Shown: positions 2,733-12,050 of the stretch, piece after piece
Layout of the letters: each line of letters starts with the position of its first letter
Numbering within the stretch: position 1 is the stretch's first letter
NCBI GenBank assembly: GCA_048268245.1
Contig: JBLWVX010000031.1
Coordinates: forward strand, 1-32,920
DNA length: 32,920 nt
Direction: 5' to 3'
Source of the DNA: Arcobacteraceae bacterium
GTDB taxonomy: Bacteria; Campylobacterota; Campylobacteria; Campylobacterales; Arcobacteraceae
Made by a program: the position numbers and the translations under genes
Notes under the pieces: model-generated
What the model saw: the letters and a program-made list of their open reading frames with translations, nothing else
What the model was told of the DNA's origin: nothing
Databases searched by the model: none

Positions 2733-4373
2733 ATGGTTAGAAATATAGTTTTTTTACTTTTATTTATAAATACATTTGCTTTTTCTTCTTGTTTAGACGG
2801 CGAAGAACTCAAAGTTGATAGATATACTACTACTAGTAGTTATAAGTCAGGAACAAATGAATCACATTGTAACACTAATAGAGAAACATATACATCAAAT
2901 TCTAAATTTTCTGTTGGTTCTTGTTTTTATAGTTCTGCTGATGGTTATTGGAAATATAGACTTTCTTATTCTACAGTTTATACATCTTGTCATCCTATCG
3001 ATGATGGACATGTTGAGCCTGAACCACCTAGTTATGTAAACCCTGACACAAACGAAACATGTACACTGGGTTTAGATGCAAGATATACATGTTCTTGTGC
3101 TTCTAATCAAGACTATAAACTTGGTGTTTGTACTAATCTTAATGATGGTGAAAGTGGTTATGATCCTAATGGTAATTTAGAATGTTCTGATACTCATGAA
3201 ATTACTATAATTAATGGTATTCAAACTTGTACACCAAAACAGGAAACATCTGACAATTCTTATTGTGGCTCACAGCAAAATGCACTTAATATTTTAGGTA
3301 ATATTTGTAAAGGTGATGTTAATTCTTCTACTATTAATCCTGATCAAAATGGTTGTTATAATTCTCTTTCATACTCTTGTGGAAATGGCGAAATTGGTTA
3401 TGTAGAGATTACACAAGATTTTAATATAGGTACAGGTGATGGTGGTGGTACTTCTCCAACAACACCAACTGACCCTGATACTAGTACAGGTACAGGAGGT
3501 ACAACAACAGACCCAACAAATCCTGATACAGATACTGGAACAAGTACAGGTGGAATTATTGACCCATCTACTCCTGATGATGATAGAACTCCTGCACAAG
3601 GTGGAACAGGTACTTCTACAGGTGGTGGCTCTACGGGTGAAGTTGATGAACCTGTAACAGATCCTACTTTTCCTGATGATGAAATAGTTCCTGAACCAGT
3701 TGATACTTTACCTGAGGGAAATACTGCAAGTAGTTGTGATGAAACAAAACTTACATTAACAGAAATGCTTCTTTGTGAAATGAATGAAAATCTACAAGAC
3801 TCTGACGGTACTTTTCCAAATGCTCTTGATGATTTAAAAAAATCTAATAATGAAGCCTATAAAGCTATGAATAATAATATTATAGGCTCTAATAAAAGAT
3901 TAGATGAAATAGTTGACTTAGAAAGAAATAATTTACAAGCTCAAAATATATCAAATGGTTTAATTTCAGATGTTAAAGATCTTTTGACACCTCCTGCAGA
4001 TAACGGACAATCAGAACTTGATAAACTAGATACTATTTTAGATGATGAAACAAACTTTTCAGAAGATGTTGAACTAACATCTGATTTAAAAAATACTGCA
4101 AATGGATATTTTGAAAACTATTCTAATATATTTAAAAATCAATTATTAGCTTTATTTAGTACTTTCTTTTCTATTAATACAACAGGAACACAAGCTCTTG
4201 GAGTTCCTTATAACTTTACTCTTGCAGGTAGAAATTTTACAGGTGTATTTTTAGATGAACAAATGTTTATAGAGTTACATATGGATAAGTTAGCAAAGAT
4301 AATTATATTTGGTTTCTCTGTTCTTGGTTTTTTACATGCCTTTAGATTTGTAATCGCTTCAAAGGATAACTAA
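2733..4373 (+). CDS. Attachment protein (pIII-like)
   Basis: Signal peptide, 16 Cys mostly in the N-terminal domains, Gly/Thr/Pro/Asp-rich linker, helical region, C-terminal TM anchor; directly upstream of pVI and pI. Confidence 0.85.
   Translation: MVRNIVFLLLFINTFAFSSCLDGEELKVDRYTTTSSYKSGTNESHCNTNRETYTSNSKFSVGSCFYSSADGYWKYRLSYSTVYTSCHPIDDGHVEPEPPSYVNPDTNETCTLGLDARYTCSCASNQDYKLGVCTNLNDGESGYDPNGNLECSDTHEITIINGIQTCTPKQETSDNSYCGSQQNALNILGNICKGDVNSSTINPDQNGCYNSLSYSCGNGEIGYVEITQDFNIGTGDGGGTSPTTPTDPDTSTGTGGTTTDPTNPDTDTGTSTGGIIDPSTPDDDRTPAQGGTGTSTGGGSTGEVDEPVTDPTFPDDEIVPEPVDTLPEGNTASSCDETKLTLTEMLLCEMNENLQDSDGTFPNALDDLKKSNNEAYKAMNNNIIGSNKRLDEIVDLERNNLQAQNISNGLISDVKDLLTPPADNGQSELDKLDTILDDETNFSEDVELTSDLKNTANGYFENYSNIFKNQLLALFSTFFSINTTGTQALGVPYNFTLAGRNFTGVFLDEQMFIELHMDKLAKIIIFGFSVLGFLHAFRFVIASKDN
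3426..3700 (+). repeat. Low-complexity G/T/P/D linker repeats inside the pIII-like gene
   Basis: Degenerate repeats TDPDTSTGTGG / TDPTNPDTDTGTSTGG / GTGTSTGGG. Confidence 0.7.
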
Positions 4374-7480: not shown

Positions 7481-7505
7481 ACAAAAGTTGTCGTCAGGGG
7501 TAAAA

Positions 7506-8879
7506 ATGAAATATGGTATTACTACAAAAGATTTAGAAGTTATTCAAAAGAAACATGAAATACAAAGAGCATATCTAAAAGACAAATTCTTTATAGGTTC
7601 AACAGGTCAATATAAATCACTTTTAGATGTTTCTTTCTCAGCTAATCATTCAAAAAGATACTATTCAGAGATCATAAATAAAATAAACACTATGAATGAA
7701 ATAGTAGCAAGTGAGCTTATTGAATATTCTAATATATTTATAACAGCAACACTTGATGGGTTTTTTAGAGACTTTTTAAAAGGTGATTTTTCAAGATACA
7801 ATGAAGATAAGCATAAAAAGCTAATTCCAAATAATGATAGATTTGGTCATTTAAAAGATAAAATAGCTTCAAAAGAAAAGTTTACAATAAAAGACTTATA
7901 CAATATTTTAAACTATCAAATGTATAGATTTCAAAGTTCACAAAAATATAGAAAAATCAAAAAAGCAGGATATAAAGCTCATTATATAAGAGTTGCAGAA
8001 CCACATAAGAAAGATGGTGTACCACACATTCACATGATGTTATATGTTCCTGTAGAGTTTAAGAATGACCTTTTAAAAGCATATAGAGAATACTTTCCAG
8101 CACCTCAAAATATTAAAAAACTAAAAAACTGCAAATTAGGTCAGTTAAATGGTTTTCAATGGGATATTAAGTCAGCTCCTGCATATATTCTAAAATATTT
8201 ATTTAAATCATTTTTAAATGTAGAAAATGAAAGTGAACTTGATGAGCTTCAAACTTGGTATATTAAACATAGAATCCTAAGGGTTGTCACTTCTCACTCT
8301 TTAGTTCCTGCATGGGTTTATAGAAAAACAGCAATCATAGAAAAAGACTGGCATTATCTAACAGATATTATAAAAACTGGTATCGCTTCATGGAATCAAG
8401 AGAATGACTATTTTATGTTTCAAGATGAACAAGACAGGGTACTTAGATACCATAACGGTACTTACGAGGTTTTTAATAAAAATAGATTAATTAAATCATT
8501 TGGAAAAAAGAAAGATACTGTTTCTAAAGATAAACCTTTTAGAGTTGATTTAAAACTAAAATACAAAAAGAAAATTAAAAACCTTCATGTTATCGTAGAT
8601 GGTGTTGATTATGTAACAGTTGATAATAAACTAAAAAAATTTAATCCAATTCCAATACCATCAAGAATGACAGACAAAATACTTACTGAGTACTTTAATG
8701 AGCAAGATAATAAACCTATAGATCAACTAAATATACCACATTACAAAGTAACTAAAAATGAAATGATTAAAAGAGGTCTTTTCAATAATAAAAAACTTGA
8801 ATTGATAAATGGAAACTTTGAACTTATAAACTCTATGCCTTATGAAACATTTGAGACTATAGAGTCAATAGGATTTTAA
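7506..8879 (+). CDS. Rolling-circle replication endonuclease, HUH superfamily, P2 gpA-like
   Basis: Motifs FITATL, RVAEPHKKDGVPHIH (HUH) and AYILKYLFK (two-Tyr motif 3); ATG 7506 with AGGGGT SD preferred over the track start TTG 7488. Confidence 0.88.
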   Translation: MKYGITTKDLEVIQKKHEIQRAYLKDKFFIGSTGQYKSLLDVSFSANHSKRYYSEIINKINTMNEIVASELIEYSNIFITATLDGFFRDFLKGDFSRYNEDKHKKLIPNNDRFGHLKDKIASKEKFTIKDLYNILNYQMYRFQSSQKYRKIKKAGYKAHYIRVAEPHKKDGVPHIHMMLYVPVEFKNDLLKAYREYFPAPQNIKKLKNCKLGQLNGFQWDIKSAPAYILKYLFKSFLNVENESELDELQTWYIKHRILRVVTSHSLVPAWVYRKTAIIEKDWHYLTDIIKTGIASWNQENDYFMFQDEQDRVLRYHNGTYEVFNKNRLIKSFGKKKDTVSKDKPFRVDLKLKYKKKIKNLHVIVDGVDYVTVDNKLKKFNPIPIPSRMTDKILTEYFNEQDNKPIDQLNIPHYKVTKNEMIKRGLFNNKKLELINGNFELINSMPYETFETIESIGF

Positions 8880-8880
8880 T

Positions 8881-9114
8881 ATGCTAAATGTACTAACACT
8901 AAAAAATGATGAAACTACAATCTACTATATTTTAAAAGACAAAATAGTTTTTCAAATAAGAAAAATAAGACTTTCAGAAAATGCAACATTTATATTTTTT
9001 GATTACACATTCAAAGAAACAAAATTTAAAAGCTTTAAATCAATAGATGAAGCAAAAGAACATCTAAAAACTAGATTTGAACAATATTTAAATAAATTTA
9101 ATAAAAGGGGATAA
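8881..9114 (+). CDS. Hypothetical phage protein (77 aa)
   Basis: Tightly packed between rep and parB, with AGGA SD. Confidence 0.65.
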   Translation: MLNVLTLKNDETTIYYILKDKIVFQIRKIRLSENATFIFFDYTFKETKFKSFKSIDEAKEHLKTRFEQYLNKFNKRG

Positions 9115-9115
9115 A

Positions 9116-10576
9116 ATGAATAAATTAATAGATACACAATTACAAGACTTTTTAGAGGTGGATATCAAAACAGTATATCCAAATGAAAATCAACCAAGAA
9201 AAACTTTTAATAATTTAGATGAGCTTGCAAGCTCTATTAAAATACATGGACTTTTAGAACCTGTTGCAGTTGTTAAATTTGATAAAGGATTTATGATTGT
9301 AGATGGTGAAAGAAGATTTAAGGCTTGTAATAAATTAAATCACACAACTATTAAAATACAGATATTTGATTTTGATGAAGCTCAAATAGATGAAATATCA
9401 CTTGTAAAAGCAAGACAAAGGCAAGATTTAACACCTTTTGAATATGCAAAGAAAATAGGTGAGATGTGGAACTCTGGAAGATATAAGAAAAAAGAACATT
9501 TAGCAAGAGCTATAGGTGAATCACAAACTTTTATTTCTAAATGTTTTTCTTCTTTAAGATTAGACCCATCTATCGTAACACTTTTAGAAGCTGATAGATT
9601 AACTGTACCTCTTTCAGTTCTTGAAGAAATAGGAAGAATTAAAGATACAGATTTACAATGTGAGATATATGATAAATATGTAAACGAAGAAATTACAAGA
9701 GATGAAATAAAAGATTATAAACAAAATTTTCCCGCGGGAAAAAAAGAAGAAAAAGTATCAAACTTTAATACAAAACCTGATGAACATAAAGAAGAAGTTG
9801 ATATTGATGATTTTATTCCTTTTAAATATATTATTACTTTAACAAAAAAGATTACTTCAAATTTTTCAAAAGGATTATTATTTGATTTACCTTTTGGTAT
9901 AAAAGGTATTTATACTATTAATGACATTAATATTGATTTTTATGAGTTTCAAACTGGTGTACATATAGGTTTTGGTAATTTATCATTAAATTCTTTAGAT
10001 GAAATGATTGAAAAAGTTTATAAACATTTTTTAGGAAGTGGTGCAAATCATGTATTAAATTTCTTCAAAAGAAGATTAGTTATTAATGATACTTTTGAAC
10101 ACACATATATTAAAGTCTTAAATGATATTGCAAAAGAATCATCTATGCAAAAAGAAACAATTAATGATATAGATGAAATAGCAAAACTTCAAAATGAAAA
10201 TAAAAGATTAAAAGAAGAAAATGAACAATTAAAAAAAGAATTAGAAAGCTTAAAAAATTCAACTCAAGAAAAACCTAAATCATTTAAAGAACAATATGAA
10301 GAATCAAAGAACCTGGAGCAACCAGTTAAAGAAGAAACAAAAAGAGATATAAGACATATTGAAATAAGTGATAGTATATATATAGAATATACAGATATGG
10401 ACTGCGATACAGTATCTTATTCAAAAGCTAAACAAATTATTAAAGAGCTTCAAACTACAGAGTTTACATATGTGTCTAATGGTTCAGAAAAAGCACATAA
10501 TTTTATTAATTCAATTCCTAAGTATGGAAGTGATCATAATAAGATTGTTTTAAAAGATAAATATAGAGTTAACTAA
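9116..10576 (+). CDS. ParB/Spo0J-family protein with a long unrecognised C-terminal extension
   Basis: PNENQPRKTF, LASSIKIHGLLEP, IVDGERRFKA (GxxRxxA box), HTH KKEHLARAIGESQTFISK; C-terminal coiled coil (LQNENKRLKEENEQLKKELE). Confidence 0.85.
   Translation: MNKLIDTQLQDFLEVDIKTVYPNENQPRKTFNNLDELASSIKIHGLLEPVAVVKFDKGFMIVDGERRFKACNKLNHTTIKIQIFDFDEAQIDEISLVKARQRQDLTPFEYAKKIGEMWNSGRYKKKEHLARAIGESQTFISKCFSSLRLDPSIVTLLEADRLTVPLSVLEEIGRIKDTDLQCEIYDKYVNEEITRDEIKDYKQNFPAGKKEEKVSNFNTKPDEHKEEVDIDDFIPFKYIITLTKKITSNFSKGLLFDLPFGIKGIYTINDINIDFYEFQTGVHIGFGNLSLNSLDEMIEKVYKHFLGSGANHVLNFFKRRLVINDTFEHTYIKVLNDIAKESSMQKETINDIDEIAKLQNENKRLKEENEQLKKELESLKNSTQEKPKSFKEQYEESKNLEQPVKEETKRDIRHIEISDSIYIEYTDMDCDTVSYSKAKQIIKELQTTEFTYVSNGSEKAHNFINSIPKYGSDHNKIVLKDKYRVN
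9727..9742. promoter_or_regulatory. Perfect 16-bp palindrome, candidate parS site
   Basis: TTTTCCCGCGGGAAAA is its own reverse complement and has a GC-rich core inside a very AT-rich gene. Confidence 0.55.
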
Positions 10577-10902
10577 TGACAATAGAAGAAAAATTAGATT
10601 TAATTATTAAAAAATTAACTGTATTAGAAGATGAAATTGTTAATCAAAAAAATTTTAATACAAAAAAAGATGTTGCAATTTTTTTAAATGTTACATCTAG
10701 AACTGTTACTAATTATATTAAAAATGGTACTTTTATAAATGGTGTTCATTACGTTTATAGAAATGATAAATTATATTTTATTAGTAAAGCTATTTATGAT
10801 TATAAAGTTAATCCAATTACAACAATTAGTAAAGATGTAATTGATGATATTGAATATTTAAACCCTATTGCTTCTAATATTGTAAAGGATTTAATAGCAT
10901 GA
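10576..10902 (+). CDS. Helix-turn-helix protein, excisionase-like
   Basis: NTKKDVAIFLNVTSRTVTNYIKNG HTH pattern; overlaps the integrase start (ATGA). Confidence 0.75.
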   Translation: MTIEEKLDLIIKKLTVLEDEIVNQKNFNTKKDVAIFLNVTSRTVTNYIKNGTFINGVHYVYRNDKLYFISKAIYDYKVNPITTISKDVIDDIEYLNPIASNIVKDLIA

Positions 10903-12050
10903 GCATATTATATAACTATATGAATATGAAAATTACAATAAAAGAAAAAAATCAAAAATGGTGGTTGGATTTTTATCATAATGGTAAAAGAGTAAGGAAG
11001 TCTACAAAATTAATTGCTAATGATGTTAATTTAAAAGAGATTAAAAAAGTTATCATACCTCAAATAGTTTCAGCTCTTAAAGGTTCTAGTAATATATCTT
11101 TAAATTTAGATATTACATTAGATGATTTTTCACATAAGTTCTTTCAAGTTTATAAAAATACTGTTAGAACTCATGTCTATAAAGAACGATTGAAACAATA
11201 TAAATTAGCTATATATCCTTTCTTTAAAGATATAAAGATTATTGAAATAACACCTTTGCTTCTTGAGGAATGGCAAAGTAAATTACTTATCAAATACAAA
11301 CTTAATAGTTATAAAATATATAAATCTTTACTAAATTTAATTCTTAAAAAAGCTTATGAAAATAATTTCATTTCTTTTAATCCTTTTGATAAAGTTTCCC
11401 TTCCTAAAAAGAGTATAAAATTAAAGAAATTAGATGAGCAACATGACTATATATATCCATTTAATACAAATGAGATAAACACAATTTTTAATTATTACAA
11501 AGTTAAAAAAAACAACATTTACTATTTCTTATCTATTATGTTATATACAGGTATGAGACCAGGTGAGATACTTGCTCTTACTTGGAATGATATTGATTTT
11601 CATAAGAAACGTATTGCAATTGATAAAAAAATATTAAATGGTGTTCTAGGTGATGTTAAAACTCAATCAAGTGTAAGATATGTTGATATACTTCCTCAAT
11701 TAGAAATACTATTATTAGAATTAAAATCTAAACAAAAAGATAGTAATATAGTTCTTTCTACTATTAGCAATACACATTATTATTCACAAGCTAATTTTTA
11801 TGCTGATTTTGTTAAAACATTAAAAAAACATAATATACCTACACGTACAATTTATAATTTAAGACATACATTTGCTTCAACTCTTATATCAGAGTCTTCT
11901 AGCAATATTTTATATGTTTCAAATATGTTAGGTCATGCAAATTTGGATATTACTCTTAAAATTTATGCAAAATTTATAAAAGAAGATGAGGAAAAGAGAC
12001 TAAATAATATAAAAAGAGTGGGCTCTTTTATGGACATTTTTAATATTTGA
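10899..12050 (+). CDS. Tyrosine recombinase / phage integrase
   Basis: N-terminal arm-binding-like WWLDFYHNGKRVRKST; catalytic motifs TGMRPGE, KT, YNLRHTFAS, LGH, TLKIY. Confidence 0.95.
   Translation: MSILYNYMNMKITIKEKNQKWWLDFYHNGKRVRKSTKLIANDVNLKEIKKVIIPQIVSALKGSSNISLNLDITLDDFSHKFFQVYKNTVRTHVYKERLKQYKLAIYPFFKDIKIIEITPLLLEEWQSKLLIKYKLNSYKIYKSLLNLILKKAYENNFISFNPFDKVSLPKKSIKLKKLDEQHDYIYPFNTNEINTIFNYYKVKKNNIYYFLSIMLYTGMRPGEILALTWNDIDFHKKRIAIDKKILNGVLGDVKTQSSVRYVDILPQLEILLLELKSKQKDSNIVLSTISNTHYYSQANFYADFVKTLKKHNIPTRTIYNLRHTFASTLISESSSNILYVSNMLGHANLDITLKIYAKFIKEDEEKRLNNIKRVGSFMDIFNI

Follow-up and report, generated by a model that had tools for sequence, protein, structure and literature searches.

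An orphan ParB of an Arcobacteraceae filamentous prophage and a conserved candidate docking palindrome held within its own gene

We describe here an orphan ParB/Spo0J-family gene, parB, together with a perfect 16-bp palindrome contained in its coding sequence, both of which belong to a filamentous prophage on a 32,920-nucleotide stretch of DNA from an Arcobacteraceae bacterium (GenBank assembly GCA_048268245.1, contig JBLWVX010000031.1, forward strand; hereafter ‘the window’). The window is one complete contig (C31) of a genome of 2.68 Mb, 28% GC and 57 contigs. Reading from left to right, we see that positions 1 to about 12050 make up the right-hand part of the prophage, with all of its genes on the + strand; the left end of the element lies beyond the contig edge, and the prophage is seen from its right-hand part. 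A pI/Zot-family ATPase, a pIV secretin and a rolling-circle replication initiator (Rep) stand in a single co-directional block—a combination that identifies an Inoviridae-type prophage and bears out the filamentous-phage setting proposed in a preliminary description of the locus. From rep onwards the genes (rep, orf77, parB, a 108-aa open reading frame (ORF) and the integrase gene int) are tightly packed, being spaced by 1 nt or overlapping, with rep ending 1 nt ahead of orf77 (Table 1). Another contig of the same genome, C44 (17290 bp), carries on its reverse strand a second filamentous prophage, related and diverged, whose genes follow the same order.

The palindrome, TTTTCCCGCGGGAAAA, spans codons N204–K209 of parB, the first six residues of a linker that follows the helix-turn-helix (HTH) domain, confirming its earlier placement just past the HTH-coding region. 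Allowing up to three mismatches, it has a single match in the window, against an expectation of 0.09 and at least one match in 8 of 100 shuffled sequences. The genome as a whole contains exactly two copies, one in the parB of each filamentous prophage (C31 and C44), so that a search for further copies adds exactly one; CCCGCGGG is likewise confined to these two prophage copies. Perfect palindromes of 16 bases number 171 genome-wide; eight or more G/C bases are present in 11 of them, and TTTTCCCGCGGGAAAA is the sole member of the 11 to occur twice. CCGCGG is counted three times genome-wide, two of these being the phage sites, whereas base composition by itself predicts about 20 occurrences; this scarcity may reflect either a general avoidance of GC-rich palindromes or a restriction system that selects against CCGCGG. 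The palindrome also uses the single CCC and the single GCG codon of parB, which account for 2.8% of proline and 2.1% of alanine codons, respectively, across 1058 long ORFs; the chance of spelling the encoded peptide F-P-A-G-K with exactly these codons is 1.6e-4.

Relatives of the 486-aa ParB encoded in the window (P0001) place this arrangement in context. Among 184 genomes from the same family, almost all encode a chromosomal ParB that is about 30% identical to P0001; a distinct group of 15 loci in these genomes encodes ParBs that are 35–52% identical. These 15 loci are temperate tailed prophages, carrying S24 repressors, integrases, dUTPases and portal proteins, and in 12 of them a small ParA (200–244 aa) precedes parB; the remaining three comprise a locus with an unscored ParA-like fragment only (L042), a contig that begins at parB (L040) and a locus in which parB is broken (L048). 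Scans of public genomes and metagenomes provided further relatives at 40–50% identity, including Sulfurimonas loci, one of which is a conjugative element with TrwB, TraG and TraF. ParA lies directly upstream in 14 of these 17 further loci, the other three contigs holding less than 350 nt of upstream sequence. The carriers of the clade (35–52% identical) are therefore Arcobacteraceae and Sulfurimonas prophages and conjugative elements. Searching a viral contig collection with P0001 gave no relative; the best match among deposited phages stands at 33% identity, and the best relevant match among plasmids is the ParB of an Aliarcobacter butzleri plasmid (36.6%), which is without a site of the TTTTCCCGCGGGAAAA class. 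In three of the clade loci a gene for a C-5 cytosine DNA methyltransferase is located between or beside parA and parB (L037, 10652–11839; L045, 11756–13270; L060, 782–1861).

A related motif, TTTTCGCCGGCGAAAA, was first sighted near the ParB of two relatives. Across the 184 genomes the pattern TTTC-SSSSSS-GAAA yields 22 distinct sites in 15 genomes (a reversed-pattern control giving 8 sites in 7 genomes), and 14 of the 22 are perfectly palindromic, against a chance expectation of 1 in 8. With the centre relaxed, we see that the true form has two inverted TTTC(C/G)C arms with any dinucleotide between them, TTTC(C/G)C-NN-G(G/C)GAAA. Scored by one constant definition (TTTC followed by S; arms made up of two complementary bases; an unconstrained centre; GAAA), sites are found in 29 of 34 clade loci, amounting to 49 sites in 357 kb (the 34 include the near-duplicates L041/L042, L116/L117, L121/L122, L123/L133 and L059/L111), as opposed to none in the 699 kb of 65 loci whose ParBs are more distant; elsewhere in the 2.68-Mb host genome there is a single site, of low GC. 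The metagenome set, fetched after the motif had been defined, has sites in 15 of 16 clade loci versus 0 of 22 distant loci. Two Sulfurimonas loci, also found later, carry sites as well, and two genomes of another family have CC-type sites adjoining their ParB. Most ParA-linked relatives have 2–5 sites per element, dispersed along it. The arms fall into CC, GC and GT types and are uniform within the element in 13 of 14 multi-site loci; moreover, one host genome (G143) houses two elements, one CC-type and one GC-type, which encode a ParB each, and this element-specific arm type within a single host argues for a reader that the element itself encodes.

Two further occurrences of the motif lie to the side of this comparison. 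A parA-parB pair whose ParB is 29% identical to P0001 (L031, G066:C62) has three TTTCGCATGCGAAA sites, at locus positions 1627, 2278 and 3012, placed so as to overlap the parA start codon, early in parB and after the HTH-coding part; the motif class and its in-gene placement hence extend beyond the 35–52% clade. A 212-aa HTH protein of a ParAB prophage (L057:6873–7511, G037; with a matching ORF in L042, G023), weakly like the ParB HTH (E 0.014–0.06), has a GC-type site in its own gene, where it encodes I-S-P-A-K-K—a second case of a DNA-binding gene holding the site.

In 16 loci (C31, C44, L039, L040, L060 and 11 metagenome loci) the site occupies the same place inside parB, 610–692 nt from the equivalent of codon 1 and just past the HTH-coding part. 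It is read as F-P-A-G-K in the window, as I-S-(L/P/R)-(G/A)-K-K in eight loci and as N-F-P-R-E or N-F-A-G-E in six; three reading frames are used, and the flanking protein sequence is unconserved. A site held in three frames within an unconserved linker means that selection acts on the DNA, and this nucleotide-level alignment of homologues leads us to regard the in-gene palindrome as a functional DNA element under DNA-level selection. Residues 204–352 of P0001 score below 50 in pLDDT (predicted local distance difference test) in an AlphaFold2 (AF2) model, such that the site sits in linker codons where constraint from the protein is lowest. Within the orphan subclade P0004–P0007, whose coding DNA was absent from the genome and metagenome contig collections searched and from 401 genomes of the order, conservation of the site is judged from the peptides F-P-A-G-K and L-P-A-G-K only: F-P-A-G-(K/N) is present in P0004, P0006 and P0007, and L-P-A-G-K in P0005. 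The recurrence of this peptide lends something to the idea that the palindrome arose by chance, or as a by-product of selection on F-P-A-G-K; this is contradicted by homologues that read the DNA motif in three frames as different peptides, and is further opposed by the codon-choice probability and by the restriction of CCCGCGGG to the two prophage copies, leaving an explanation to which we attach next to no weight. Instead, the clade-specific linkage, the fixed in-gene place and the uniform arm type all point to the element’s own ParB as the putative reader, and we think it probable, from the sequence comparisons, that P0001 binds the palindrome.

P0001 itself matches ParB_N (PF02195; E 2.2e-15, 56.9 bits against a cut-off of 26.3), HTH_ParB (PF17762; 24.6 bits against 22.6, over residues 103–199) and TIGR00180 (105.4 bits against 58.45). 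Among solved structures it is closest to 4umk (H. pylori Spo0J) and 7ng0 (Noc; E 9e-19), and the central HTH aligns with their DNA-binding domains. Box I of the nucleotide pocket (Q26-P27-R28) is invariant in our alignments and intact in P0001, as is box II; the intact GERRFKA box and the HTH reported previously are both recovered at the level of residues (64–70 and 103–199). In the AF2 model the confident N-terminal domain and HTH stop at residue 203. The C-terminal alpha/beta domain is kept in P0003–P0008, including P0008 with its long, ParA-type N-terminus, and finds no clear solved relative (best VIA-align Z 5.1; no Foldseek match at E <= 0.001). The C44 protein has about 30 different residues in the place of residues 228–340 of P0001. 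Contigs from four sequencing runs (X1, X4, X7 and X8; labels: oyster, mollusc, seawater metagenome and ‘organism A’) cover parts of window positions 8800–10700 at 80–100% likeness, and the form in run X8 skips 9798–10165, corresponding to the short, C44-like ParB linker; its presence beside the window form indicates that both linker forms circulate.

Three derived features set P0001 apart from its relatives. The first is the loss of ParA: there is no match to the ParA family among the 36 window ORFs scanned, and the only ParA adjoining a ParB in the whole genome belongs to the host’s own pair on C20. Searching the genome with the ParA of a relative’s module gives weak P-loop matches only (E 1.5e-4 or worse), and no mobile-element-type ParA was found in it. 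The relatives have ParA directly upstream; for this ParB the orphan status previously claimed holds at the scale of the genome. The second lies at the N-terminus, which is about 16–20 residues shorter than in the ParA-linked relatives and, in alignments, lacks both their conserved basic peptide, x-G-K-x-(K/R)-T-x-G, and the host-type L-G-R-G-L. The basic peptide is present in all ParA-linked relatives, in which it may well be the ParA contact. The third is box III, which reads K-A-R-Q-R in P0001, P0003, P0004 and P0005, as opposed to E-N-I-Q-R in every ParA-linked relative and E-N-x-Q-R in the host ParB, H. pylori Spo0J 4umk and Noc 7ng0. For Caulobacter ParB, PMC8367383 describes an N136A mutant with weak or nil binding of cytidine triphosphate (CTP) whose clamp does not close, and an E135A mutant that binds CTP with neither hydrolysis nor DNA entrapment; by analogy, the CTP clamp cycle of P0001 is somewhat likelier to be impaired than to be whole.

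Over 227 codons the parBs of C31 and C44 differ at 30 of 681 nt, with 26 synonymous and three non-synonymous codons, and the K-A of box III is kept in P0005, a protein 54% identical to P0001; by these comparisons P0001 is under purifying selection and not decaying. P0006 and P0007 combine a short N-terminus with a retained E-N-I-Q-R, which suggests that the loss of ParA and of its contact peptide came before the change in box III.

Table 1. Features of the prophage and of the parB gene (window coordinates unless a contig is given)
Feature	Position	Strand	Basis or remark
Small ORFs	within 1 to about 12050	+	
546-aa ORF	2733–4373	+	
pI/Zot-family ATPase (filamentous-phage assembly)	4669–5799	+	family matches
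pIV secretin (filamentous-phage assembly)	5741–6880	+	family matches
Rolling-circle replication initiator Rep	7488–8879	+	REP_ORF2-G2P, E 4.1e-7; phrog_91 ‘nicking at origin’
orf77, 77 aa	8881–9114	+	without family match; occupies the parA place of relatives
parB, 486 aa (P0001), orphan ParB/Spo0J-family protein	9116–10576	+	Pfam, TIGR00180, solved relatives
ParB N-terminal (CTPase-fold) domain, residues 12–98	9149–9409	+	PF02195; AF2 pLDDT about 70–90
Box II, G-E-R-R-F-K-A, residues 64–70, intact	9305–9325	+	invariant in alignments
Box III, altered: K98-A99-R100-Q101-R102 in place of E-N-x-Q-R	9407–9421	+	alignments
HTH DNA-binding domain, residues 103–199	9422–9712	+	PF17762; confident in AF2 model
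Low-confidence linker, residues 204–352	9725–10171	+	AF2 pLDDT below 50
Perfect 16-bp palindrome TTTTCCCGCGGGAAAA, candidate ParB docking site	9727–9742	.	two inverted 7-bp arms TTTTCCC, 2-bp centre
Predicted long helix or coiled coil, residues 347–382	10154–10261	+	AF2 model; weak coiled-coil family matches
C-terminal alpha/beta domain, residues about 410–480	10343–10555	+	AF2 pLDDT 85.5
108-aa ORF, excisionase-like by position only	10576–10902	+	overlaps parB stop and int start
Tyrosine integrase, prophage right end	10899–12050	+	family matches
parB of C44 prophage	C44:8051–9241	reverse	

The surroundings of parB add the following. Comparing the window with C44 by blastn, we see that orf77-parB is the best-conserved block of the two prophages (94–95% identity; orf77 belongs to the 95%-identical block common to both), most other genes remaining unaligned at the DNA level and a few further stretches being 85–92% identical; this similarity between two co-resident phages suggests that they either exchanged the module recently or have been selected to share a specificity. 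The 108-aa ORF (10576–10902) has no match in Pfam, PHROGs or NCBIfam. To the right of int the host DNA resumes with a Ham1-family gene (start 12093), followed by proC, a BamD-like gene, Lon and others; no recognisable att repeats were seen within the window contig. A promoter scan of the region gave fewer promoter-like sites than shuffled sequence, and no terminator at the palindrome. A second perfect palindrome of parB, GAGCTTGCAAGCTC (9221–9234, in the part coding for the N-terminal domain), is probably a chance occurrence; the C44 copy differs at 9232.

We favour an interpretation in which P0001 is a derived, ParA-less ParB that, with its cognate site, forms a static or clamp-impaired binder; on the sequences at hand this is the better-than-even account. 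ParB and palindrome would have been co-inherited from a ParA-ParB-site module that circulates on the temperate prophages and conjugative elements of Campylobacterota, the two HTH domains of a ParB dimer reading the inverted TTTTCCC arms and leaving the 2-bp centre free. In the filamentous prophage, the module would have been pared down to parB and its in-gene site, with parA and the N-terminal peptide gone and the E-N of box III turned to K-A. With these three changes, the complex most likely acts independently of ParA, and probably without the normal CTP-driven clamp cycle; it would be a static or short-range nucleoprotein complex, lying in the middle of the rep-orf77-parB-xis-int operon, on the prophage or on the replicative form. 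The outcome might be a tuning of the operon (parB itself, xis and int), or else a marking or tethering of the replicative form; a regulatory role specifically, by feedback on its own gene, xis and int, is something we suggest with some hesitation. The sequences themselves establish that the site exists, is selected as DNA, is tightly linked to this ParB clade and stands with the three derived features; its binding, the loss of the clamp cycle and the downstream role are inferred.

The preliminary description took a different view, in which the palindrome is a true parS and P0001 a working CTP sliding clamp that would silence rep, xis and int by spreading, or else recruit the host’s SMC or ParA. 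Boxes I (Q-P-R) and II (G-E-R-R-F-K-A) are indeed intact, the protein scores above the TIGR00180 cut-off, the next gene of the same operon begins 849 nt downstream of the site, and KorB, a ParB-family clamp, is able to repress from afar (PMC11790492). Set against this are the K-A of box III at the positions whose Caulobacter counterparts, N136A and E135A, are defective (PMC8367383), the want of a ParA-contact peptide and of an LGRGL-type motif, and the fact that no KorA-like partner was identified. We consider this account unlikely. The assignment as a ParB CTPase clamp is upheld at box II and doubtful at box III; of the proposed one-gene ParB-parS cassette, what survives is a conserved cis-element tied to a ParB clade at a constant in-gene place. 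Given the altered box III and the missing ParA-contact motifs, segregation via the host ParA and silencing by spreading are the weaker parts of that view: for the former both the basic N-terminal peptide and the host-type LGRGL are missing, and the latter is weakened by the comparison with the two Caulobacter mutants.

Several observations also weigh against the clamp-impaired binder that we favour, and should be set out together. The K-A of box III might be compensated elsewhere. The prophage DNA shows one full site and no excess of half-sites, from which it follows that there is no multi-operator, KorB-like network; more sites may lie in the part of the prophage beyond the contig edge. Whilst the site is unchanged between the C31 and C44 parBs, the region is about 95% identical anyway, and the site falls within a 72-nt stretch free of differences, making its conservation there uninformative when taken alone. 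Five of the 34 clade loci have no site within the sequence examined, and alignment reveals no simple HTH residue-to-base code separating CC-type from GC-type ParBs. Finally, the motif also occurs within or adjacent to a gene for a MobV-like relaxase on type IV secretion system (T4SS) elements (in G159, G046, G047, G006, G032 and a second element of G039), and in one prophage of G029. Those genomes checked with the family model (G159, G046 and G047) have only a chromosomal ParB_N, and ParB is consequently not the only possible reader of the motif.

Motifs of the forms H-x-D-E and H-x-H are encoded by the relaxase-like gene, whose copies in different elements are homologous to one another (E 1e-38). 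Neither profile search nor profile comparison locates a ParB-like HTH within about 10 kb of the T4SS-element sites, the best match in this search (E 0.014) being an unrelated ParB-prophage HTH protein. As a side observation, T4SS elements L053, L054, L055, L105, L106 and L107 share TrbL, the relaxase-like protein and a motif of the form TTTTCGC-NN-GCGAAAA, and in one of them (L053, G159:C18, locus 9980–10063) an array of three sites, 85 bp long, immediately precedes the relaxase-like gene and might serve as a transfer origin or as an operator; in other elements the motif falls inside that gene.

These elements supply the case for a reader other than ParB—a host factor or some other mobile-element protein—with the linkage to parB arising through hitch-hiking in a shared pool of mobile DNA: the motif is present in T4SS elements and a prophage whose genomes encode chromosomal ParB_N only, no ParB-like HTH was found in the surrounding 10 kb or so, and the G159 array adjoins a relaxase-like gene. 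Such a reader does not readily accommodate the 29 of 34 clade loci with sites versus 0 of 65 distant-ParB loci, nor the constant place inside parB across proteins that are 40–50% identical and in three frames; an arm type specific to the element within one genome would not be predicted by a host factor. On balance we find this possibility decidedly improbable.

The palindrome could, alternatively, work as a folded structure, either as a hairpin in single-stranded phage DNA (for origin, packaging or priming) or as a terminator. The phage does have a single-stranded stage and a rolling-circle Rep, and the T4SS elements likewise transfer single strands. The hairpin, however, would comprise at most six pairs (four of them A-T) closed by a 4-base loop, and the terminator scan did not pick the palindrome up. 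The carriers are for the most part double-stranded tailed prophages with 2–5 dispersed copies, and it is the arms that are kept whilst the centre varies freely, as in a site for a dimer; a structural role is very hard to sustain.

Lin and Grossman (1998) reportedly located a parS inside the spo0J gene of B. subtilis, and the arrangement in the window resembles chromosomal ParB/Spo0J-parS systems in its ParB_N plus HTH architecture, in having a palindrome suited to a dimer and in the embedding of the site in parB itself. The protein differs from that of chromosomal systems through the lack of ParA and of the ParA-contact peptide, the altered box III and a different C-terminal region. As for the site, its arms share TTTC...GAAA with the canonical parS (the 16-mer as quoted in the preliminary description), but read TTTTC(C/G)C, and the centre is longer by two base pairs; when the two are aligned by their centres, 4 of 8 half-site positions agree. 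The host keeps canonical parS-like sites (1–2 mismatches) elsewhere, at C8:29189 and C8:35983, which makes the phage site a separate specificity.

Noc offers a parallel in being an orphan ParB paralogue without ParA, and the half-site TTTCCC equals that of the Noc-binding site (NBS, again as quoted in the preliminary description); in the window, however, the half-sites stand two base pairs further apart. P0001 scores below the curated threshold for Noc itself, with 110.1 bits against the TIGR04285 cut-off of 315, and Noc, unlike P0001, retains E-N-x-Q-R. The specificity of ParB and Noc is set by positions 173, 179, 184 and 201, with residue 201 reading position 6 of the site, according to PMC7383237. 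Our alignment of P0001 has a gap at the equivalent of position 201 and a proline at the next conserved histidine, both of which would fit an altered reading of the inner bases.

KorB of plasmid RK2, with its OB operators, is a ParB-family protein of a mobile element that serves gene control beyond partition (PMC11790492), and its structure (8qa8) is a weak solved relative of P0001 (E 5.4e-8). The same source describes KorB as an active CTPase clamp with many operators and KorA as partner. The window’s ParB differs in that it has one full site, placed in coding sequence and not at a promoter, together with an altered box III; a global regulator of the KorB type is accordingly not what we see in the prophage sequence. 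Plasmids and prophages commonly carry orphan ParBs, an established class for which VirB and BisD are named as examples in the accessible portion of PMC12704722, and P0001 shares with them a location outside any parAB operon, the lack of a ParA-binding motif, carriage by a prophage and a lineage-specific C-terminal addition; that portion of the source is a protein-centred survey, with no site for the present clade and no case from a filamentous phage.

The closest system by far is the set of Arcobacteraceae and Sulfurimonas ParA-ParB modules (L036–L050, L059, L060 and L110–L124), which have ParBs 35–52% identical to P0001, the same motif class and the same in-gene position; they differ in retaining ParA, the basic N-terminal peptide and E-N-I-Q-R, and mostly have 2–5 sites. 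Our literature search returned no ParB in filamentous phages and no such site in Arcobacter, nor did it return the 7+2+7 class of site, in-gene conservation in three frames or a ParA-less, box-III-altered derivative in a filamentous phage.

A more far-reaching form of the interpretation can be put together from these parts. From a ParABS module the phage may have taken over no more than the reader and its site, and have naturally disabled the CTP switch and the ParA contact; the resulting static, parS-binding ParB may serve as the phage’s own switch for the rep-xis-int operon; and it might occupy, and so poison, the centromeres of rival elements, a possibility that arises because the TTTTCCC arms match those of co-circulating ParABS prophages and conjugative elements. 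That all of these should hold jointly is doubtful. A separate part is the proposal that the clade represents a ParB specificity class with parS/NBS-like half-sites 2 bp further apart.

The CTP switches of the ParB family are an active field, in which the orphan ParBs of mobile elements have only just been catalogued, mostly without known DNA sites; here, a class of site for an entire clade of ParBs on the mobile elements of Campylobacterota emerges from the genome sequences themselves. Since its 7-bp arms and free 2-bp centre differ from both parS and NBS, this class provides a test of how far the spacing of ParB half-sites can move. The clade also offers a natural series, running from ParA-linked proteins with E-N, through ParA-less proteins with E-N (P0006 and P0007), to the ParA-less K-A form of this phage, which suggests the order in which a partition protein turns into something else. 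The ParB of the window is a rare instance of a partition-type protein in a filamentous phage, and it may control excision or the replicative form.

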